Source: a phage
DNA: 64,000 nucleotides
Assembly (NCBI GenBank): GCA_033648345.1
Contig: GCA_033648345.1_4121.1
Direction: 5' to 3' (one strand)
The notes beneath the pieces are model-generated. The model saw nothing but the letters and a program-made list of their open reading frames with translations, made no database searches and was not told the origin of the DNA. Positions within the stretch are counted from its first letter, which is position 1. Every line of letters begins with the position of its first letter. Made by a program: the position numbers and the translations under genes. Of this stretch, positions 750-59,480 are shown piece by piece.

Positions 750-793
750 CTTTTTGATTCTCCATAAGAAGGGAACATTTGATGTATTTATAC

Positions 794-823
794 GTGGGAC
801 AAAGACGTTTTTGGTGCTATAAT
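794..823 (+). promoter_or_regulatory. early-type promoter (GTGGGA -35-like, TGnTATAAT extended -10) upstream of gp55
   Basis: gtgggacaaagacgtttttggtgctataat. Confidence 0.5.
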
Positions 824-880
824 AACATTGATGGTACAAGGAATGTACCTATTGGATTTAAAACATGGAGAGTTGAAATA

Positions 881-1720
881 ATGACAAATAGGCCGAAGCG
901 TAAAAAGTATCTTAACAATGCTGATTTACTTCGTGAGATACAAAAAAGTAAAATCTCATATTGCTGGTTACTTGATAAGTGCTACAGTATGTACGATTAT
1001 ATCGTTTTTGATGAATCCGAAATCACAGCAGAACTTTTAGATAAAGCTAAAGCAGCACGTATTAAACGTCTCAACAATGAAATGCTTGATGCAATTCGTG
1101 AAAAAGAAGGTATGAGTGCGAAGAAAGCGAAGGAATACGCAGATGAGCACAATTTAGTACTGACTGATGTACCTATCGATGAGGTGGTTATTCGTGTAAT
1201 TACCGATGAACATATCCCAGCAGATACAAGAGTTAATTTTGAACCATTCAAACATTACATTGTAGATGAAGAAGGTATTCTGTACGAAGTCGTTCGTTCT
1301 CACTGGAAAGGTGATCTTGAAGACGGAGAATTCAGTACTGTTCATGGTAAAATCACTAATGAACTAGGTAAAATGTTCATTAAACTGGCAGAGGAAATCT
1401 CACACAAATCCAACTATAGAAACTATACATATTTGGATGAAATGATGGGTGATGCCAGAATACAATTAGTTAAAAACGCACTTCTCTTTAAAGAGAGTAT
1501 TCTTTACAAAAAAGATAAACCAGCAGTACAGTTGAATCCTTTCTCTTACTATACTTCGTTCGTTAACAATAGTTTCCGTTCTATTCTTAATAGTGAGAAA
1601 AATGTTCGTAACATCCGAGACGATTTACTTGAGATGCATGGTTTTACACCATCACACACTCGTCAAATCGAAATTGAAATGAACATGATTGAAAGGAAAA
1701 ACGAAGATGGCTCTATTTGA
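881..1720 (+). CDS. 55: late-transcription sigma factor gp55-like
   Basis: N-terminus RKKYLNNADLLREIQ resembles T4 gp55 N-terminus (YNYVNNKELLQAI); ATG at 881 with GGAG RBS; lies next to genes 47/46 as in T4; longer than T4 gp55. Confidence 0.7.
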   Translation: MTNRPKRKKYLNNADLLREIQKSKISYCWLLDKCYSMYDYIVFDESEITAELLDKAKAARIKRLNNEMLDAIREKEGMSAKKAKEYADEHNLVLTDVPIDEVVIRVITDEHIPADTRVNFEPFKHYIVDEEGILYEVVRSHWKGDLEDGEFSTVHGKITNELGKMFIKLAEEISHKSNYRNYTYLDEMMGDARIQLVKNALLFKESILYKKDKPAVQLNPFSYYTSFVNNSFRSILNSEKNVRNIRDDLLEMHGFTPSHTRQIEIEMNMIERKNEDGSI

Positions 1721-2738
1721 TAAAGCAATTACATTTACTGATATTCATTTAGGATTAAAGAATAACAGCAAGCAGCACAACGAAGATTGTTTGAACTTCA
1801 TCAAGTTTATGATTGAACTTGCTAAGAAAAATGGTATTACTGTATGCGTGTTTATGGGAGATTACTTCCATAACCGCAGTAATATTAACATTCAAACATT
1901 AAACTATGGTTTACAAATTCTACAATTACTAAATGACAACTTTGATAAGGTTTACTTCTTAGTTGGGAACCATGACATGTATCATAAAAATAAACGTGAC
2001 ATTACTAGTATTAATATGGCACAAGTTTATGAGAACATCGAGTTCATTAATGAAATCACAACATTTGATGATTGTACTTTCATTCCATTTATGATTGAAG
2101 ATGAATACAAAGTTCTACCTCAACTTAAAAGCAAGTATGTTTTTGGTCACTTAGAGTTACCTGGCTACTTGCTTAATAAAATGGTTGAGATGCCAGATCA
2201 TGGTAAAGAGACTGAAGGTTCTTTTGGTGGTTGTGAGTATGTTTTTAGTGGACATTTCCATAAGAGACAAGCAAAAACAACATCAAAAGGAACTCGTGTA
2301 ATTTACACAGGTAACTGTTTCCCACATAACTTTTCTGATACTTGGGATGATGCAAGAGGTGTGATGATTTTAGAACATGGCAAAGAACCAACTTTCCATT
2401 CTTGGTCAGAAGCACCAAAATATAGAACATTTACACTTTCAGAACTATTAACAGATCCAAGTTATTATCTTCAAGACAATACTATTTCAAAGGTTCAAGT
2501 TGATATTGCTATCACTACTGATGAGATTAGTTTTATTCGTGATACTTTTACTAAACTTTATAACATTCGTGAGTTTAACGTTGTTACTAGCAAGCAAAGT
2601 ATCAAAGAACTTATTGAAGATGGTGAAAGCTTTGAAAGTACTGAGTCAGTTGATGAGATTGTGTTACAACAAATCATGGAAATTGATTCACCTATGTTCG
2701 ATAAAAATCTTCTAATCCAAATTTACAGATCACTATAA
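1707..2738 (+). CDS. 47: recombination endonuclease subunit gp47 (Mre11/SbcD-like phosphoesterase)
   Basis: Phosphoesterase motifs (TDIHLG, GDYFH, GNHD, GHFH); ATG at 1707 with AAGGA RBS; listed ORF start 1689 is a TTG. Confidence 0.85.
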   Translation: MALFDKAITFTDIHLGLKNNSKQHNEDCLNFIKFMIELAKKNGITVCVFMGDYFHNRSNINIQTLNYGLQILQLLNDNFDKVYFLVGNHDMYHKNKRDITSINMAQVYENIEFINEITTFDDCTFIPFMIEDEYKVLPQLKSKYVFGHLELPGYLLNKMVEMPDHGKETEGSFGGCEYVFSGHFHKRQAKTTSKGTRVIYTGNCFPHNFSDTWDDARGVMILEHGKEPTFHSWSEAPKYRTFTLSELLTDPSYYLQDNTISKVQVDIAITTDEISFIRDTFTKLYNIREFNVVTSKQSIKELIEDGESFESTESVDEIVLQQIMEIDSPMFDKNLLIQIYRSL

Positions 2739-2750
2739 GGGAAATTTATT

Positions 2751-4898
2751 GTGCTAAACATTACACGTATATCAATGAGGAACTTCTTTTCATTTGGCAA
2801 TGCACCACAAGTAATTGATTTGTCTGGTGCTGATATATCGTTAGTTCTTGGTCAAAACAATGATGCAGTTATTGAAGGTGGTGATAGTTCCGGTCGCCGT
2901 AATGGTGTTGGTAAAAGTGCCATCATTCAAGGTTTAGTTTTTGGTTTGTTTGGAAAAAGTATTGGTAACGATATCAAAATTCCAAACTTAGTTAATAAAA
3001 CTAATGCTAAAAACTGTGAAGTATCTGTTGAGTTCGAGAAAGATGGTGTACAATATCTCGTCGAGCGTGGGAGAAGTCCCACGTATTTCAACTTTATTAC
3101 ATTAGGTAAAGATAATAAGGTCGAAGATGAGTCAAGAGGGGAGAAGAAAGATACACAAGAAGATCTAAACGAGATTCTTGGGATTTCTCAACTACTATTT
3201 GAACATATTGTAGTACTTAATGCTAACGTAGAGCCGTTTCTTGCATTATCATCACAGAAACAACGTGATATGATTGAGGAACTTCTGGGTATCACACAAT
3301 TAACAGAGAAAGCTGAACTATTAAAGGATATGTATAAAGATTCTAAACGTTTAGCTGAACAAGAAAAGTTCAAAATTGAAACTGTGGCTGCAAGTAATGA
3401 ACGTATTCAAAAAAGTATTGAATCATTACAAGAACAAGCTAACCAATTTGAGATTGATAAAAATAATAGAGTATCTAAGTTGACTGAAGAATTGAATATC
3501 TACAAAACTTTAGACTTCAACGATCTCTATGATTTGGCAGAAGTGAAAGAGAAAGCTCTTATTCATAATGCTGCTCGTGATCAAATAGAAAGACGTGTAC
3601 AAGAGTTAGCTTTGAAGTATGATGCATATGACCGTGAACTGGCAACAGCAAAATTAGCATTAAATGTAAGTATTGATAAGCTAAAAACTATTGATATCAG
3701 TACTGAATTAGAAAATCACAATGAGTTGGAGATATGGAAACAGTTGGAGGGTATTCTAAAAGAGAATAATAACCAAAAACGTTTCAAAGAACAAAAACTT
3801 AACGCATTAAAGGTGGCTTTAAATGGTCATGAGAGTTCGTTACGTGCTGAGGTGGACAAATTAGCAACAGTGGAGAGTAGTAAATGTCCACTTTGTATGT
3901 CCGAATTAGAACATAATGAACATACTTCGTCTATTAAAGATAAAATTCAAAATACTATTAATGAACTTCAATCGAAAATTGATAGTTCCACTTCTGAAAT
4001 TGAAACATTACTTCAGGAAATTGATAGTATTGAGATTTTTGATATGCCACCTAAGCCTGTGACATTCTATTCTACACTAACTGAAGCACAAATGCATGAG
4101 CATAAGCTTCAAGAACTTATTAAAAAGAGTGAAGAAGAGCAAATTAACATCTATGCTAATGAACTTATGTCATCATATGAAGAACTGAACGCACATGTTC
4201 TTCAAGAAGTACCAGATACATTGAATAAATCTGAAGTAAAAGAGTTAGAAATGACAGTAACTTCATTATCACAGCAATTAGATCGTGAATTGAAAACTAC
4301 TAACACATTTATTGGACAAATTAATACACTTACGACCGATTCATTAGTACCAATCGACTATAGTGACTATAATAACCTTGATAAGATGGCAAATCACCAA
4401 GATTTCTTGGTTAAATTGTTGTTAAACAAGGATTCTTATGTCCGTAAGCGTATTATTGAACAAAACATTTCGTATCTGAATACACGTCTTCAATATTACA
4501 TTGATATGTGTGGTTCTGAACATAATGTTGTGTTCTTGAATGATTTGAGTGTAGAAATTGAGAAAAGTGGTCAGTACTTTGACTATAAACAGCTTAGTCG
4601 TGGTGAGCGTACAAGGGTAAACATTGCTTTATCTTGTGCTTTCCGTGATACATATGAGTCATTGTATCAAAGTATCAATATTCTTATCATTGATGAGATG
4701 ATTGACCAAGGTCTTGATTCAAGTGGTGTTCTTCGCGTGTGGTCTATCTTCCAAGATATGGCTGCTGTGCGTGGTAAGAATGTATATGCCATTTCTCACA
4801 GAGAAGAATTGCTTTCTAAGACTGAGAAAATCCTAAAAGTAGTTAAAGAGGATGGTTTCAGTACTGTTGAGTATACAACTCTTGATGATGTATTCTAA
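2751..4898 (+). CDS. 46: recombination endonuclease subunit gp46 (Rad50/SbcC-like ATPase)
   Basis: N-terminal P-loop GRRNGVGKS, long coiled-coil middle, C-terminal signature region (LSRGERTR, LIIDEM); GTG start supported by alignment to T4 gp46 N-terminus. Confidence 0.85.
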   Translation: MLNITRISMRNFFSFGNAPQVIDLSGADISLVLGQNNDAVIEGGDSSGRRNGVGKSAIIQGLVFGLFGKSIGNDIKIPNLVNKTNAKNCEVSVEFEKDGVQYLVERGRSPTYFNFITLGKDNKVEDESRGEKKDTQEDLNEILGISQLLFEHIVVLNANVEPFLALSSQKQRDMIEELLGITQLTEKAELLKDMYKDSKRLAEQEKFKIETVAASNERIQKSIESLQEQANQFEIDKNNRVSKLTEELNIYKTLDFNDLYDLAEVKEKALIHNAARDQIERRVQELALKYDAYDRELATAKLALNVSIDKLKTIDISTELENHNELEIWKQLEGILKENNNQKRFKEQKLNALKVALNGHESSLRAEVDKLATVESSKCPLCMSELEHNEHTSSIKDKIQNTINELQSKIDSSTSEIETLLQEIDSIEIFDMPPKPVTFYSTLTEAQMHEHKLQELIKKSEEEQINIYANELMSSYEELNAHVLQEVPDTLNKSEVKELEMTVTSLSQQLDRELKTTNTFIGQINTLTTDSLVPIDYSDYNNLDKMANHQDFLVKLLLNKDSYVRKRIIEQNISYLNTRLQYYIDMCGSEHNVVFLNDLSVEIEKSGQYFDYKQLSRGERTRVNIALSCAFRDTYESLYQSINILIIDEMIDQGLDSSGVLRVWSIFQDMAAVRGKNVYAISHREELLSKTEKILKVVKEDGFSTVEYTTLDDVF

Positions 4899-5500: not shown

Positions 5501-5530
5501 GTGAGACACTTTTGAATTTGGTGCTATAAT
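5501..5530 (+). promoter_or_regulatory. early-type promoter of the ORF-free candidate RNA locus
   Basis: gtgagacacttttgaatttggtgctataat. Confidence 0.5.
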
Positions 5531-5535
5531 GTTAA

Positions 5536-5992
5536 TTGTAGTGATGACAATCCTGTTGAATGCAGAAATGCATATAAATTAGAACCTGATCCTATCGAAA
5601 ATGTAGATGGCAGATGAGCAGTTCAACAGTGCGATGAGCAGAAGAAACCCGTTAGATGTGGGCATAGTTTGAACCCCTCACGGCGACACGGCTCAATAAA
5701 GAACTCCGATAAGCATACAGAGAGTTCCTCGATAGATGTATAAGGATCGCACCTTACCAGATTTGCTAAGGGAGTTTATTAAGTGATTTAATAAACAGCC
5801 TGAAGTTTGATTGTATAGACTTTCAGGTGAGTGTCAGGATGATTAAGACTGACGACCGTTGCACATGACTGCGATAGAGAGAAACAGAGCAACCCGCTTT
5901 CGTTCTTAATGAATTTTAAGAAATTCGCAATACAATAAATGCTGAAACCATCAGCGTCAAGAATTAAGAGACTTAATTGTCTCTTTTTTATT
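5536..5992 (+). ncRNA. candidate structured non-coding RNA (unclassified)
   Basis: ORF-free on both strands, visibly higher G+C than flanks, several stem-loops, bracketed by promoter 5501..5530 and terminator 5967..5991. Confidence 0.3.
5967..5991 (+). terminator. intrinsic terminator ending the candidate RNA locus
   Basis: agagac-ttaatt-gtctct followed by TTTTTTA. Confidence 0.5.
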
Positions 5993-6202
5993 GTCTTCAT
6001 TCCCCTGCGGGGGGATGAAAATGTCTTCAACAAATCCCGTCAAGTATTAAATCTTTTAAAGTTCTTTATAATTAATTATAAGAAATGAATATGAGTTACG
6101 TAGTAACGAATATTCTTCAGCTAACGAATGAAATGAGTTAGATGAGTTCACTATAAAATAATTAATTCCTTTCATAATTCAATTCAATCAATTCTGTAGT
6201 TT

Positions 6203-6233
6203 AAAACCAAAAAAACCAGCAACAATGTGCTGG
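6203..6233 (-). terminator. intrinsic terminator after minus-strand genes 6245..7290
   Basis: ccagca/tgctgg stem with U-tract on minus strand. Confidence 0.5.
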
Positions 6234-6244
6234 CTCCTTGTGAG

Positions 6245-6454
6245 TTAGTGCTTCTCGTTTTGTTTTTTAATTTTCTTATTAAAAGACTTAACTAATAAGT
6301 CTCTATCAATTAGTGGCATATTAAGTAGTGTTCCGTAATCAACACTTTCCATATAAACAGAACACTCCATTAATGCAGTTTTAATATCTGACTTATTCAA
6401 CTCAAATTCCTTAAGTACTTCTTGTATTTCTTCAGGAGATGAGTGGAGAAGCAT
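6245..6454 (-). CDS. hypothetical small protein
   Basis: 69-aa ORF immediately downstream of 6454..7290 on the same strand, followed by a minus-strand terminator. Confidence 0.4.
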   Translation of the reverse strand: MLLHSSPEEIQEVLKEFELNKSDIKTALMECSVYMESVDYGTLLNMPLIDRDLLVKSFNKKIKKQNEKH

Positions 6455-13278: not shown

Positions 13279-13286
13279 TATAAATA
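13279..13286 (+). promoter_or_regulatory. T4-type late promoter core TATAAATA upstream of scaffold gene
   Basis: Exact TATAAATA about 48 nt upstream of ATG 13334. Confidence 0.5.
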
Positions 13287-14473: not shown

Positions 14474-14505
14474 AAATTTTTCAGTTCTATAAATAATATC
14501 ATACT
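14474..14505 (+). promoter_or_regulatory. conserved late-promoter block with TATAAATA (copy 2) upstream of major capsid gene
   Basis: aaatttttcagttctataaataatatcatact. Confidence 0.6.
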
Positions 14506-19426: not shown

Positions 19427-19523
19427 AAAATATTGAGACAACTTTTAAAGTAGTGATACAATGTAGTCATCTTACAGCGGTTGTGAGATGACATTTTTTC
19501 AAAACACATGGAGAAGCAAACAA

Positions 19524-19829
19524 ATGGCAAAAGCTAAAAAAGAAGTTAAAGTTGAAATTCGTGACCTAAATGATGAACAACGTAAACGTCTAGGTGATGC
19601 ACTAAACAACGCAGTAGTACAACTTACTTTTATTGACGACACCAAAGCATCCTATGCAGATTTCATTAGTTCCATCTCTGATGAACTAGGTATTGATGCA
19701 TCCGATATCAAACAAGCCGCTCAACGTATCTACAAAGGCGATTACTTTGATAAACAAAACAAACTCGATAACATCGAAACTATCCTAAGTGTTACTAACA
19801 ATTTACCACAAGCAGATGACGATTACTAA
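19524..19829 (+). CDS. hypothetical protein
   Basis: ATG 19524 after GGAG; early-type promoter at 19432..19461; terminator downstream. Confidence 0.5.
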   Translation: MAKAKKEVKVEIRDLNDEQRKRLGDALNNAVVQLTFIDDTKASYADFISSISDELGIDASDIKQAAQRIYKGDYFDKQNKLDNIETILSVTNNLPQADDDY

Positions 19830-23372: not shown

Positions 23373-23476
23373 TAAAAAATTGAGACAAGCATCATTCACG
23401 AGATATAATGGTGCTTGTAGTAATCTGAAGCATACAAAAACATTTTTGATTAACAAATAAAACGGAGAATTATATA

Positions 23477-26973: not shown

Positions 26974-32220
<5,247 letters not shown>

Positions 32221-32276
32221 GTGATATAATGATGTTTGTCAGGGCAATGAGCCTTGACAAACAGAGTAAAAAAACC

Positions 32277-32306
32277 TTGGGACGGTTAAAAATCCCATGA
32301 TATAAT
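32277..32306 (+). promoter_or_regulatory. early-type promoter upstream of gene 32
   Basis: ttgggacggttaaaaatcccatgatataat. Confidence 0.45.
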
Positions 32307-35972: not shown

Positions 35973-37457
35973 ATGAAAACTTGTAAGCTAACCTTACTGG
36001 ACGAGGTTAATTGTAAATTTGAGGGACTAGATCCCTCAATTCGTCAGAAGATGATTCGTGCAACAGAATATGTACTTCCATACGCTAAGTTCACCCCTGC
36101 TGGTCGTATTGGTCGTTGGGATGGTAAGGTACAGTTTATGAACTTAGGTGGTAGTACTTACTACCACATGTTGGATAAGTTGTTGCCAATCTTAGATGAA
36201 GCAAAAATTGATATTGAACTTGAAGATCATCGTGTCAATTACGGATTCAATTTTGAACCAATTGATGAAGATATTTTTAGTGATGTTGTGTTTGGTGCTG
36301 GACACCACATGGAAGGTAAGTCAATCAAGCTCAGGGAGCATCAGGTGAACGCAGTTAATGCTTGCCTTGCAAACCCACATGGTTTATTATTAGCAGCTAC
36401 AGGGGCTGGTAAAACGCTCATCACAGCGGCATTATCCAAGAAGGTACAGGAGTATGGACGTTCTGTGATTATCGTACCCAGTACTGATTTGGTGCAGCAA
36501 ACATATGATGACTATGTTATGTGTGGTCTTGACACTGGAGTGTTCTATGGTGCACAGAAAGACTTTGGTCACCAACACACAATCACTACCTGGCAGTCAT
36601 TCAACTCTTTGTGGAAGAAAACAAAGAAAGGTGAAATTGAACTGACTGAACAAGACGTTCATGACTTTATTGATGGTGTGGTTTGTGTGATTGTCGATGA
36701 GTGTCAAGGTGCTGGTGGTGATGCATTAGTTCAAGTACTCTCTAAAGTTATGAATAACGTCCCACTTCGCTGGGGATTAACTGGTACAATCCCTAAAGAC
36801 CAAGTTGTCGCAGCGAAGATTAAATGTAACGTTGGTGATGTGATATTTAAAATCACAGCTAAAGAATTACAAGATAAAAAAATACTAAGCACATGTAATG
36901 TGAACTGTATTAAACTTAAAAGTAATTTAAAGTTCGCGTCATATGCAGAAGAATTGAAGTACTTAGTTACTGACCGTGATAGAATGGCATATGTAGCATC
37001 ACTGATAGGTGCGTTAGCAGAATCTGGAAACACGTTAGTACTGGTTGATAGACTTGAAGCTGGTGAATTGCTTTGTGAATTTTTGGGTATTCCTAAGTCA
37101 GAATTTGTTCGTGGGGAAACCAAAAAGAAAGACCGTGAATCTTCATATGGTGAAATTCGCTGGGCTGATAACAAAATACTCATTGCAACCTATGGGGTAG
37201 CAAGTACTGGTATCAGTATTTCTCGTTTGTATAATGTCGTTCTAATCGAACCAGGAAAAAGCTTCGTTCGTACAATACAGTCCATTGGTCGTGGGTTGCG
37301 TCGTGCAGAAGACAAAGACCACGTGGAAATCTTTGATATCAGTGGTACAAACAAATATAGTGCAAAACACTTACGTGAACGTTTACAATACTATAAGGAA
37401 GCACAATATCCTCATAGTATCATAGATGTTAAGGATTGGGAAAATACAGCGGGATAA
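35973..37457 (+). CDS. uvsW: UvsW-like SF2 DNA helicase
   Basis: Walker A ATGAGKT, DECQ box, SIGRG; N-terminal GRWDGKV like T4 UvsW. Confidence 0.8.
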   Translation: MKTCKLTLLDEVNCKFEGLDPSIRQKMIRATEYVLPYAKFTPAGRIGRWDGKVQFMNLGGSTYYHMLDKLLPILDEAKIDIELEDHRVNYGFNFEPIDEDIFSDVVFGAGHHMEGKSIKLREHQVNAVNACLANPHGLLLAATGAGKTLITAALSKKVQEYGRSVIIVPSTDLVQQTYDDYVMCGLDTGVFYGAQKDFGHQHTITTWQSFNSLWKKTKKGEIELTEQDVHDFIDGVVCVIVDECQGAGGDALVQVLSKVMNNVPLRWGLTGTIPKDQVVAAKIKCNVGDVIFKITAKELQDKKILSTCNVNCIKLKSNLKFASYAEELKYLVTDRDRMAYVASLIGALAESGNTLVLVDRLEAGELLCEFLGIPKSEFVRGETKKKDRESSYGEIRWADNKILIATYGVASTGISISRLYNVVLIEPGKSFVRTIQSIGRGLRRAEDKDHVEIFDISGTNKYSAKHLRERLQYYKEAQYPHSIIDVKDWENTAG

Positions 37458-37513
37458 TCCCGCTGTACATGATATAATGTGTCGTATGACAACAACAAGG
37501 AAGTAAAATAAAA

Positions 37514-41327: not shown

Positions 41328-42305
41328 ATGGCTCATCACGGCGTGTTTATGTACCCTTATAACCAAGAAGTATCATTGGGCAATTTTAATATGCCATATA
41401 GCAATGAGAAACTTACAATATACAGAGGTGCAAATAACAATTTATCATTCACAGTGCATAACGCTGATGGAAAATATACATTACTAAAAGATAACGAATA
41501 TCTAACATTCATGATTTTTGATGCTAGAAACAATACTAAATTATTCGATGTAGTTTTGGATAAACAAAAACCATCATGGCTATCAGAAAGTGGACAAGCA
41601 AGACAAACATTAGGTAATAGTAAAAAAGTATATTATGGATGTATTGTTCCTGCTGGTGTAATTCAGGATACTAGTCCTGGTTCAAAATATAGATGGAGTA
41701 TTACTAAAGTAACAATGGATGGTTCCTTGATTGAACCTACACAGTACTTATACACTGGTCTTGATTATGAAGCCTCTGCTGAATTGATAATTTCCGACCA
41801 AGCTGCTCCTGTGTTTGTGCCAAGTATTGAAGTATCTGTTAATAAAAACCCAGCATGGACTACCATCAAACGCTTGTATCATGAACCAATCGCTCGTGGC
41901 GTTATTGGTGAATTTGATATAATGGCAACATCTCCCCTTCCTGCACAAATGCAGTACGGATTAGTTGATGGTCTTAGTACTATTGCAATGTACTTTGATA
42001 AATTCATTGGTAGAATTCAATTACAAGGATGTTTGTGTAATAACGTACCAACTGATAACGAAAACTATAAATGGTTTATTGTTAAATTGGATGGTAAAGA
42101 ATATATCGAAAATGATATTGATGAAAATGGATTCCCTAAAGCGTTAGATGGGATTCAAGCATTTAATTTTAAAGGTAATTACATGTGGTTGCGATTGGTT
42201 GTTTGTATTCATCCTAAGATCGTTCCAGTTCCTTATGACTATGCGGCAGTAAGAAAAGTCTATGACCCACTACTGTCAGTTCCTAAAATTTTGATTCGCA
42301 GGTGA
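41328..42305 (+). CDS. putative late-expressed structural protein
   Basis: ATG 41328 with GGAAGGA RBS; TATAAATT late-promoter-like upstream. Confidence 0.45.
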   Translation: MAHHGVFMYPYNQEVSLGNFNMPYSNEKLTIYRGANNNLSFTVHNADGKYTLLKDNEYLTFMIFDARNNTKLFDVVLDKQKPSWLSESGQARQTLGNSKKVYYGCIVPAGVIQDTSPGSKYRWSITKVTMDGSLIEPTQYLYTGLDYEASAELIISDQAAPVFVPSIEVSVNKNPAWTTIKRLYHEPIARGVIGEFDIMATSPLPAQMQYGLVDGLSTIAMYFDKFIGRIQLQGCLCNNVPTDNENYKWFIVKLDGKEYIENDIDENGFPKALDGIQAFNFKGNYMWLRLVVCIHPKIVPVPYDYAAVRKVYDPLLSVPKILIRR

Positions 42306-42330
42306 GACAAAACAAGTGTTTGTGCTATAA
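42302..42330 (+). promoter_or_regulatory. early-type promoter upstream of primase gene
   Basis: gtgagacaaaacaagtgtttgtgctataat. Confidence 0.5.
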
Positions 42331-42360
42331 TCATTTGTGAGAAATAACAAGGATTAAATT

Positions 42361-48724: not shown

Positions 48725-48753
48725 CTGAGACAAACAAAAATACGATGCTATAA
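48725..48753 (+). promoter_or_regulatory. early-type promoter upstream of RecB-like nuclease gene
   Basis: ctgagacaaacaaaaatacgatgctataat. Confidence 0.45.
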
Positions 48754-48767
48754 TTAGGAGTACACGG

Positions 48768-49487
48768 ATGTACACACCACCAATTGTTAGCAGATATACA
48801 TACGTTGATTACAAAAGAATTGAAGGCGGCCCCGAAGGTCGCCTTTATTCAACTCCAACAGGGAATCTGCCGTCAGTAACAACAATTCTTAGTGCCACCT
48901 CTGACAATGAGGGGTTGAAAAAATGGAGAGAATTTGTTGGTGAAGAGAAAGCTAATGAGATTACATTAGAAGCATGTACTGTTGGTACTTTTATGCACGA
49001 GAACTTAGAATATCGTCTGGATGGAAAGCCAGACCACCAAGGTGGTATGCCGATACGAGTTCTGGCCCGTAGAATGGCTGACAAAATTCAAGAAGAAGCA
49101 TGGCCTAGAATCAATGAAGTGTGGGGTCAGGAAGTTCCATTATTCTATGAAGGATTATGGGCTGGAACAACTGACTTAGTTGGAGTTCATGATGGTATTC
49201 CTTCTATCATGGACTATAAGAATTCCCGTAAATTAAAGACATGGGAACATATCGAAAATTACCGTATGCAAATCGCTGCATATGCACTATCGCATAATCA
49301 AATGTTTGGAACAAATATTGAGCGTGGTGTAATTTTCATCTGTGTAAGAAAAGATCCTAACAATTTACAATATCAAGAATTCGTTATTGAAGGAAAAGAC
49401 TTCAAAGATGCGGTTGATATGTGGATTGGTAGAGTTGAACAATACTATATTTTACGTGGAGAAATTGAATCAAATGGAACAGCATAA
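48768..49487 (+). CDS. PD-(D/E)xK nuclease, RecB/Cas4-like family
   Basis: TDLVGVHDG...IMDYKNSRK and QIAAYAL arrangement typical of RecB-family nuclease domains. Confidence 0.5.
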   Translation: MYTPPIVSRYTYVDYKRIEGGPEGRLYSTPTGNLPSVTTILSATSDNEGLKKWREFVGEEKANEITLEACTVGTFMHENLEYRLDGKPDHQGGMPIRVLARRMADKIQEEAWPRINEVWGQEVPLFYEGLWAGTTDLVGVHDGIPSIMDYKNSRKLKTWEHIENYRMQIAAYALSHNQMFGTNIERGVIFICVRKDPNNLQYQEFVIEGKDFKDAVDMWIGRVEQYYILRGEIESNGTA

Positions 49488-53030: not shown

Positions 53031-53057
53031 AGATCCCGCTTCTGCGGGATTTATTTC
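53031..53057 (+). terminator. intrinsic terminator after nrdA
   Basis: gatcccgc-ttct-gcgggat followed by TTATTT. Confidence 0.6.
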
Positions 53058-53071
53058 ATAGGAGTGATATA

Positions 53072-53845
53072 ATGAAAGTTGACTATCGTAGTCCAATAGA
53101 TATTGGATTCATAGAAGAATTTTGGGATGATCTTGATATGGATATGATTGTTCGCTATCAAAAACTCCCACAAGACTTTATAAAAAAACATTTTGATAAA
53201 ATGAACCCTAATATGTTAGCTCGATATCAAACAATGACAACTGATTTTCTTAAAGAAAAGTGGGAGTGGTTTGATAAAAATGTTATTGCACAATATGTAG
53301 TCATGCCAATGGAATTGATTATGGAAAAATGGAATGACTTCAAAGATAACTTTCTGGATACTGTTGCTAAGTATCAAAAACTAACACAAGATTTTATTCA
53401 AGACAAATGGAATGACCTTGTTGAATTTAGAGATGGTGTAATGTCGGAAATTTCCAGATACCAAAAACTAACACTTGATTTCATTAAAGATAAATGGGAT
53501 TATATTGATAAGAACTATATTTCATATTATCAAACTTTAACGGTTGATTTTATCAAAGATAATATTACTGCATTAAATGTTGCAGCAGTATCCGCATTTC
53601 AAATACTATCGGATGATATACGCTCATCGATGGGGTTAGAAGCACCAGCAAAAACTATTACGGGTAATCAAATACTCGCGTTGGACCCATGTGCCGATGG
53701 TATGGCTCGATACAATGCTCATACACCTGACAATAATACAGTTTTGACATGGAATGAACTACTTACACTACACTTGGGTTCACAAGAAGGAATTAGTGAT
53801 ATCCATTGGCTATCATATAAATTGGGTCATAAAATTAATACATAA
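53072..53845 (+). CDS. tandem-repeat protein (about six ~25-aa YQxLTxDFIxxKW repeats)
   Basis: Repeats RYQKLPQDFIKKHF / RYQTMTTDFLKEKW / KYQKLTQDFIQDKW / RYQKLTLDFIKDKW / YYQTLTVDFIKDN. Confidence 0.55.
   Translation: MKVDYRSPIDIGFIEEFWDDLDMDMIVRYQKLPQDFIKKHFDKMNPNMLARYQTMTTDFLKEKWEWFDKNVIAQYVVMPMELIMEKWNDFKDNFLDTVAKYQKLTQDFIQDKWNDLVEFRDGVMSEISRYQKLTLDFIKDKWDYIDKNYISYYQTLTVDFIKDNITALNVAAVSAFQILSDDIRSSMGLEAPAKTITGNQILALDPCADGMARYNAHTPDNNTVLTWNELLTLHLGSQEGISDIHWLSYKLGHKINT
53153..53582 (+). repeat. in-frame tandem repeat array (~75 bp units) inside CDS 53072..53845
   Basis: Periodic YQ-LT-DFI-KW at protein level. Confidence 0.5.
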
Positions 53846-55201: not shown

Positions 55202-55231
55202 TTAGGACAAACACCAGAACTGTGCTATAAT
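55202..55231 (+). promoter_or_regulatory. early-type promoter
   Basis: ttaggacaaacaccagaactgtgctataat. Confidence 0.45.

Positions 55232-58171: not shown

Positions 58172-59480
<1,309 letters not shown>

Follow-up and report, generated by a model that had tools for sequence, protein, structure and literature searches.

In the window analysed here, which is a stretch of 64,000 nucleotides (nt) of phage DNA (assembly GCA_033648345.1, contig GCA_033648345.1_4121.1), the plus-strand promoter at positions 5502-5530 drives a non-coding RNA of about 500 nt, whose existence and structured nature are close to certain. This promoter belongs to a recurrent class composed of the heptamer T-G-(A/G)-G-A-C-A, an invariant spacer of 16 nt and the hexamer TATAAT, mostly with a preceding TG (TGnTATAAT), at least 11 plus-strand sites of which were accepted in the window. 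The more novel result is the RNA and not the promoter class, and the link between the two is new here. The source of the window is a Rak2-like jumbo coliphage: a test stretch of 8 kb shares 98.9% identity with WPEC5 and Turkey3, both jumbo coliphages, and about 84% with the Asteriusvirus phages 121Q, PBECO4 and G17, while the hosts of farther relatives are Salmonella, Erwinia, Klebsiella, Yersinia, Serratia, Cronobacter, Pectobacterium and Xanthomonas. The window corresponds to about 190.7-254.7 kb in Turkey3 coordinates and contains a T4-like replication/recombination module with some head, tail and packaging genes; the complete Turkey3 genome (361 kb) was put together from nine stretches for the genome-wide counts.

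Downstream of the promoter at 5502-5530, no gene is annotated before the convergent minus-strand genes (about 6245), and there is no plus-strand open reading frame (ORF) of more than 49 amino acids (aa); a conserved small ORF was not found in the RNA either, the open frames switching between the members of the family and missing in some of them. In Turkey3, four paralogous gaps free of coding sequences, each opening with a promoter of the class, share 70-79% identity over 360-490 nt and are located at 62, 112, 196 and 309 kb of the 361 kb (paralogues in stretch coordinates: L004:11879-12416, L005:11738-12313, L008:4807-5302). The orthologue is present in the syntenic gap of the phages G17, GAP32, 7t3, Yen9-03 and XbC2, and in RaK2 a diverged version follows the sigma gene. 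The pattern scan of IMG/VR revealed 33 copies of the RNA, almost all of them in contigs 350-380 kb long, and a BLAST search of the phage collection located it at 289 places, spread over 72 records that all belong to this phage group, with 4-5 copies in most records and 1-2 in the RaK2-like ones. Immediately 5' of every copy examined stands the promoter in the form typical of that lineage, and the promoters of the RNA copies are the broadest phylogenetic support for the class. In the public records the RNA either lacks an annotation or has been taken for small hypothetical proteins, and a preliminary description of this DNA, in which the promoter had been flagged, overlooked that the site drives a non-coding RNA instead of a protein gene.

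The RNA structure, taken from an alignment of nine sequences and transferred to a larger one of 26 sequences, comprises 95 base pairs in 18 helices. In the larger alignment 92.7% of these are paired, compared with 42-45% after sliding of the 3' partners, 52 of the 95 pairs are changed on both sides, compared with 14-23, and the covariation score is 0.386, compared with about 0.07; the observed values of pairing and covariation were reached by no column shuffle. Because of the invariant G-U pairs, the strand of the RNA is that of the promoter. The long-range pairs proposed by local RNAalifold with ribosum scoring were implausible, and that folding was set aside. The terminator-like hairpin inside the gene is helix 17 of the structure, with five of its six pairs changed on both sides and with the conserved sequence running on downstream. 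The RNA (window 5536-6049) is 97% identical to that of 121Q (KM507819.1 326634-327148), compared with 84% for a mostly protein-coding stretch of 8 kb located about 13 kb downstream, a sign of strong purifying selection. No Rfam 15 model was matched at the gathering score across the window, and the E-value mode, applied to the window copy and six others, gave chance terminator-like matches only. The non-coding RNAs 001, 002 and 004 of phage PA5oct, which are supported by RNA-seq, gave no match as homologues (nhmmer --max) and, therefore, provide no expression evidence for the RNA.

The same RNA is also found in bacterial chromosomes: of 5,426 complete E. coli genomes two contain it, as do two Serratia, one of them Serratia fonticola, and a metagenome-assembled genome (MAG) of Enterobacteriaceae. 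In E. coli LR-29-1 it (L059:11959-12546) occupies an island between ffs and ybaA, together with an integrase and IS3 remnants, and at the other loci (in stretch coordinates, L058:3690-4152 on the minus strand, L057:5401-5902 and L056:6426-7032) it adjoins large serine recombinases, ParB/RepB-like genes or a CI-type repressor. No protein gene common to the four bacterial loci was found at E < 1e-5, and no copy of the RNA was found in plasmids. The bacterial copies are 70-81% identical to any phage copy and keep the structure (e.g., 84 of 92 pairs); their promoters are TGGGATG-N16-TGATATAAT in E. coli and TGAAAC(A/G)-N16-(TGC)TATACT in Serratia and the MAG. The bacterial box matches that of the jumbo phages of the same host, though the body of the E. 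coli RNA is closest to the copy of a Serratia phage. These host-matched boxes, as a small natural experiment with about three independent cases, favour a phage-encoded reader of the heptamer. The scheme as a whole, in which a phage factor reads the heptamer, the new large structured RNA is one of its targets, and elements of E. coli and Serratia have captured the RNA under a host-tuned promoter, is put forward tentatively and is more likely to fail in some part than to hold throughout. Speculatively, the bacterial RNA might be switched on by infection with a jumbo phage, for a sensor-driven decoy, defence or satellite function.

As for the promoter itself, the pattern TGRGAMR-N16-TAYAAT has 8 matches in the window against 0.11 expected by chance, at least 8 being reached in none of 100 shuffles, and the minus strand contains zero strict matches; GRGACA-N16-TATAAT has 6 matches against 0.05 expected, and TGNTATAAT has 14 against 6.2, every one on the plus strand, which for all matches is the coding strand of the downstream genes. 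The heptamer lies at about -35 to -29, and the distance to the start codons of the downstream replication, recombination and late-sigma genes is 13-87 nt. Of the 11 accepted sites, all but 19434 (TACAAT) have the hexamer TATAAT and all but 23381 have the TG one base 5' of it, 10 in each case, the G of this TG having the highest information in the site matrix, 2.5 bits. The class thus has the TATAAT and the upstream TG of extended -10 sigma-70 promoters but not their canonical -35 TTGACA at 17 +/- 1 nt, as the TT is replaced by G-(A/G) and GACA alone matches, at 16 nt. No site of the class has TATAAATA, the sequence that T4-type late promoters carry at -10 without a -35.

The preliminary description had listed nine sites of the form (T/G)TG(A/G)GA, a spacer of about 18 nt and TGnTATAAT, and all nine are present within 1-2 nt of where it had placed them. 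The register had to be shifted, since the hexamer is followed by CA and 16 nt and its first base is unconserved; the pattern also does not hold at every site, with TACAAT at 19432, no TG at 23380 and TAGGACA at 55202. The sites and the neighbouring features are collected in Table 1.

Table 1. Promoters of the heptamer class and associated features in the 64,000-nt window.
Feature	Position	Strand	Remarks
Promoter TGGGACA-N16-TGCTATAAT	795..823	+	before gp55-like late sigma gene; 57 nt from ATG at 881
T4 gp55-like late-transcription sigma gene	881..1720	+	PHROG 12791 'sigma factor for late transcription', E = 9e-153; also PHROG 234
Flagged promoter TGAGACA-N16-TGCTATAAT	5502..5530	+	drives non-coding RNA; same architecture directly 5' of every RNA paralogue/orthologue
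Structured non-coding RNA gene, about 500 nt	5537..6045	+	paired core 5591-6041; ends inferred
Internal hairpin and T-run, terminator-like	5966..5985	+	inside RNA; absent from copies gapped here
Terminator-like hairpins	6210..6251	both	between RNA gene and convergent minus-strand genes
Promoter TGAGACA-N16-TGATACAAT	19434..19462	+	before 101-aa gene and DNA polymerase gene; orthologues in all six other genomes examined
Promoter TGAGACA-N16-TATAAT (without TG)	23381..23409	+	before sliding clamp gene
Promoter TGGGAAA-N16-TGCTATAAT	26975..27003	+	before RNase H / 5'-3' exonuclease gene
Upstream tandem promoter CGAGACA-N16-TGATATAAT	32202..32230	+	before single-strand DNA-binding protein gene; absent from preliminary description
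Promoter TGGGACG-N16-TGATATAAT	32278..32306	+	before single-strand DNA-binding protein gene; tandem with 32202
Variant promoter CGGGATA-N16-TGATATAAT	37450..37478	+	overlaps uvsW terminator hairpin; before 142-aa gene; absent from preliminary description
Promoter TGAGACA-N16-TGCTATAAT	42303..42331	+	before DNA primase gene
Promoter TGAGACA-N16-TGCTATAAT	48726..48754	+	before exonuclease gene; -10 just 13 nt from annotated ATG
Variant promoter TAGGACA-N16-TGCTATAAT	55203..55231	+	before 77-aa gene
Doubtful member CAGGACA-N16-TGATATAAT	59136..59164	+	inside RNase H-like gene, 340 nt 5' of helicase gene

The genome-wide motif search, proposed earlier as a check, was run on Turkey3 with the matrix from the sites and gave 38 above-threshold matches on the plus strand and 0 on the minus strand, with 0-3 in the Markov-shuffled genomes. 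A tabulation of the sequences upstream of all TA[TCA]AAT in Turkey3 revealed three types of -35: canonical TTGACA at 16-17 nt, G(A/G)GACA at exactly 16 nt, and the GTACTTGCA type. The TTGAC(A/T) promoters (65 on the plus strand and one on the minus strand) form clusters at 0-20 kb and at 280-340 kb, in the midst of small ORFs, and the heptamer class extends over 60-330 kb with a peak at 180-240 kb, in the replication module; outside the window its sites precede gyrB, nrdD and other genes. The suggestion of a phage-specific class distinct from the TTGACA promoters is thus supported, the class being strand- and position-specific, spatially apart from the TTGAC(A/T) promoters, and orthologous in six lineages.

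For the comparison between phages, the syntenic 40-48 kb of G17, 7t3, Yen9-03, GAP32, XbC2 and RaK2 were used, and the upstream regions of seven orthologous genes were aligned. In every lineage the promoter is found at the equivalent place, with TGnTATAAT and a spacing of 16 (+/-1) nt, the spacers having diverged. The -35 box is TG(A/G)GACA in Asteriusvirus (window, G17), TGGGAC/T(A/G) in 7t3, TG(A/G)AA(C/T)(G/A) in Mimasvirus and Eneladusvirus (GAP32, XbC2, Yen9-03), and TGAAC(A/G)A in RaK2; the hosts of these lineages are mostly enterobacteria. The box TGAAACG of Mimasvirus and Eneladusvirus matches TTGACA at 2 of the 6 positions, yet its conservation is equal. Since the box is conserved within a lineage, differs among phages of closely related hosts, and is in some of them barely TTGACA-like, the comparison points to a phage-encoded reader of the heptamer. 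Site 795 has the same box and -10 in G17 with a different spacer, and orthologues in 7t3 and GAP32; site 37450 has orthologues in every lineage examined, each with the box of its own lineage.

The genes behind the window sites encode the gp55-like late sigma, the 101-aa protein with the DNA polymerase, the clamp, RNase H, the single-strand DNA-binding protein (with two promoters), the product of the gene after uvsW, the primase, the exonuclease and a small ORF. Because the sites head replication, recombination and late-sigma genes, a set that T4 expresses from middle promoters, and not the TTGACA-rich arrays of small ORFs, the earlier 'early or middle' assignment can be narrowed to its second part, i.e., the sites would act as middle (delayed-early) promoters.

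The model with about an even chance of being correct is that a conserved phage factor of the sigma-70 family reads the heptamer. The host sigma-70 holoenzyme would read the early genes from the canonical TTGACA promoters; one early product, the sigma-70-family factor conserved across the phage group, would join the host core polymerase, and its diverged C-terminal region 4 would read the heptamer and redirect the enzyme to the promoters of the class. These would start the units for the replication/recombination genes, the late sigma gene and the multi-copy structured RNA of about 500 nt, and would express the gp55-like sigma required for the TATAAATA late promoters. A sigma-70-family protein is encoded by all phages compared, with an identity of 60% between the window clade and 121Q and of 33-40% to the other genera; at 60% between two clades of one genus, the protein is fast-evolving. 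In Turkey3 its gene (308471-309436; L008:3771-4733) is located about 4.7 kb 3' of a TTGACA-N16-TATAAT promoter at about 303.7 kb, all intervening genes being on the same strand. Pfam recognises regions 2 and 3 of the protein, and the PDB alignments reach through region 4.1 into a diverged helix-turn-helix (HTH) with an insertion, whose putative recognition helix is (A/S)R(S/T)S(L/I)HR in two lineages with the GGGAC box and SKATLSR in two lineages with the GAAAC box. The sigma of 7t3 is 57% identical to that of GAP32 in regions 2-3 (vs 40%), yet its helix groups with the GGGAC-box lineages. The apparent co-variation of the helix with the box, seen in about four lineages, is suggestive.

Several observations weigh against the phage sigma as the reader, and the main one comes from the phage sigmas that it would resemble in this model, gp28 of the Bacillus phage SPO1 and gp36 of phiEco32, in which an early phage sigma sends the host core to phage-specific promoters: these factors recognise -10 elements unlike TATAAT, whereas the -10 here is the host consensus. 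The phage sigma has T-T or S-S in place of W433/W434 of sigma-70 and V in place of E458, and its region 2.4 varies by lineage while the -10 and the TG remain the perfect host consensus. A reading of the -10 by the host sigma-70 is fitting, because TGnTATAAT is the host consensus everywhere and the phage sigma is without W433/W434/E458. The correlation of helix and box is poorly fitted by RaK2, which has the R..H helix residues of Asteriusvirus but a different box. GRGACA at the 16-nt spacing matches TTGACA at 4 of 6 positions, and a transcript begun at site 48726 (48726-48768) would be without a Shine-Dalgarno (SD) sequence. The chromosomal RNA copies have retained the promoter in the absence of any encoded phage sigma, and they can be read in the sense opposite to that given above, namely that the promoter works with the host polymerase alone.

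Part of these observations would be accommodated if the host sigma-70 read the extended -10 and a phage DNA-binding co-activator, analogous to MotA/AsiA, read the heptamer, the phage sigma serving other promoters; this we regard as rather unlikely, though worth serious consideration. The perfect and invariant sigma-70 signal TGnTATAAT, together with the variable -10-reading region of the phage sigma lacking the above residues, agrees with it, as do the match of the served gene set to the T4 middle promoters and the presence of an HTH protein gene adjoining the sigma gene in GAP32 and of a transcriptional regulator gene near the sigma gene in the Pectobacterium phage CBB. Extended -10 promoters remain active when region 4 of sigma-70 is masked, by AsiA in T4 or by gp39 of the Thermus phage P23-45, which also counts for a co-activator. 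However, no candidate activator was identified, a tblastn search of Turkey3 with T4 AsiA gave no match (a weak test), the sequence of the box and its distance of 16 nt are both unlike those of the MotA box, and the conserved sigma would be left unexplained, without another obvious target motif. The earlier remark that the class is possibly activator dependent is plausible, and the lineage-specific -35 box favours a phage-encoded reader; the leading candidate for the latter is the sigma-70-family factor and not an activator.

It is also conceivable, though improbable, that the sites are ordinary extended -10 promoters of the host sigma-70, with the heptamer as a weak -35 (the GACA half) kept by descent, no phage factor involved, and a timing that could be early. 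GRGACA at 16 nt agrees with the sigma-70 consensus at 10 of the 12 positions, the chromosomal RNA copies keep the promoter in cells without the phage factor, and GTTGACA-N16-TGnTATAAT, with equal spacing, is present in the same genome. Against this, the -35 sequences fall into two modes, TTGACA and TGRGACA, with no spread of single mismatches, the TGAAACG box is equally conserved at 2/6 vs TTGACA, the box varies among phages and islands of different enterobacterial hosts, and the TTGAC(A/T) and heptamer classes are spatially segregated. Region 4.2 of sigma-70 is near-identical among the enterobacterial hosts, and a host reader would not explain the differences in the box. That the recurrence is no transcription signal at all, being due to AT-rich chance or to a duplicated repeat, is already refuted and retains almost no probability: TATAAT alone is common in the window, and the four RNA copies are paralogous, so that their promoters are not mutually independent, but 0.11 matches were expected where 8 were found, none on the minus strand, the flanks of the protein-gene promoters are mutually unrelated, and the box and the -10 are conserved across genera at orthologous sites with diverged spacers.

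Among the individual sites, the start of the gp55-like gene is more likely at 881, where a good SD is present in agreement with G17_00333, than at the start annotated in Turkey3, which lies upstream of the promoter (window 779-881); the Pfam search with the gp55-like protein gave no match. The 101-aa gene (19524-19829), just 5' of the DNA polymerase gene, has a weak match to PHROG 639 'transcriptional regulator' (E = 1.6e-7), and its protein has no match in the Pfam and PDB sequence searches. The intragenic look-alike at 58634 was rated doubtful, and the site 53045-53073 is probably not a promoter, as its TGATATAAT (TATAAT) overlaps the SD and the ATG of the next gene. The T4 late-promoter sequence TATAAATA precedes the scaffold and major capsid genes (13279-13286 and 14488-14495, both on the plus strand) and is also found at 785-792 on the minus strand, back-to-back with the promoter at 795.

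Elsewhere in Turkey3, canonical GTTGACA-N16-TGnTATAAT promoters with equal spacing are also present, and GTACTTGCA(A) stands 14-18 nt 5' of a -10-like hexamer at 22 plus-strand places, 20 of which lie in the initial 20 kb, where the ORFs are very small. In the region 1091-3062, about 1.4 kb without an annotated gene comes after a strong heptamer-class promoter at 1673, this stretch being not homologous to the RNA family. At 317.9-333.8 kb, a fused terminator-promoter unit, AAAGGGTTGACTTCGGTCAGCCCTTTTTGCTATAAT, with the -35 TTGACT within a terminator-like hairpin, is repeated (e.g., at 317949, 324586, 328883, 329606, 330990 and 333750). The promoters GTACTTGACTAAATAGTTCAGTACTGATATAAT of the tRNA region (293917, 294677 and 295569) have AGTACT-like palindromes flanking the -35 and the -10, and AGTACT recurs in the variable loops of the RNA family too.

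These results provide a testable consensus of middle promoters, its lineage variants, and a candidate reader, the phage sigma, for a group of at least 72 sequenced genomes, several phages of which have been proposed for therapy. The proposed cascade would lead from the early TTGACA promoters to the phage sigma, from it to the TGRGACA promoters, and from these to the gp55-like sigma and the TATAAATA promoters. A new RNA of 500 nt with such covariation is a rare find, the more so as it is present in multiple copies per phage genome, is common to chromosomal mobile elements, and is better conserved between the two Asteriusvirus clades than the nearby DNA.

With regard to prior predictions, a MEME analysis of the Pectobacterium phage CBB had yielded a 'second possible promoter', present 18 times, whose -10 is classic and whose -35 is TGAAACG (Buttimer et al. 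2017, PMC5259590), i.e., TGAAACG-N16-TGnTATAAT in Table S6 of that work. The class, named 'Promoter 1' or 'divergent RpoD-like promoter', precedes the DNA-synthesis genes and the gp55-like gene of CBB and, according to the same paper, is also present in the Cronobacter phage GAP32 (Abbasifar et al. 2014). The window sites share with it the TG-initial heptamer, the 16 nt, TGnTATAAT, the set of DNA-synthesis and gp55-like genes and the orthologous positions, and differ in the box, TG(A/G)GACA here and TGAAACG there (positions 4 and 7), in a lineage-specific manner at orthologous promoters. By this correspondence, they are the Asteriusvirus-type lineage variant of the 'divergent RpoD-like' class already predicted in silico in the sister phages. 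In the searchable literature the class was not found described for Asteriusvirus-like coliphages: the papers on Sharanji and fEgEco12 mention the sigma factor and no promoters, and in the RaK2 paper promoters are unmentioned. The RNA-seq study of PA5oct, a distant relative, reported TTGAC-type promoters.

The class is like the MotA/AsiA middle promoters of T4 in having a phage-specific box in place of the -35 together with a sigma-70-type -10, and in serving, within a T4-like replication module, genes for replication, recombination and the late sigma. The MotA box, (a/t)(a/t)(a/t)TGCTTtA, is centred at -30 and lies 11-13 nt from the -10; unlike it, the box here is TGRGACA at 16 nt from the -10. 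Unlike T4, the Rak2-like phages encode a full sigma-70-family factor. At oriF and oriG of T4, the transcript of a middle promoter primes replication, and RNA II of ColE1 is a structured primer of about 550 nt. By pure analogy with oriF/oriG, where a middle-type promoter gives a non-coding transcript, with several copies round a T4-like genome, the RNA could serve as a structured replication primer in the phage; a role like that of the large phage-borne RNAs GOLLD and ROOL is equally conceivable. The RNA resembles GOLLD and ROOL as a large multi-helix phage-borne RNA, of about 500 nt, with strong covariation, and it is unlike them in having no similarity to any Rfam 15 model and in being present, in most of the phages, as 4-5 paralogous copies, each with a promoter of the class.

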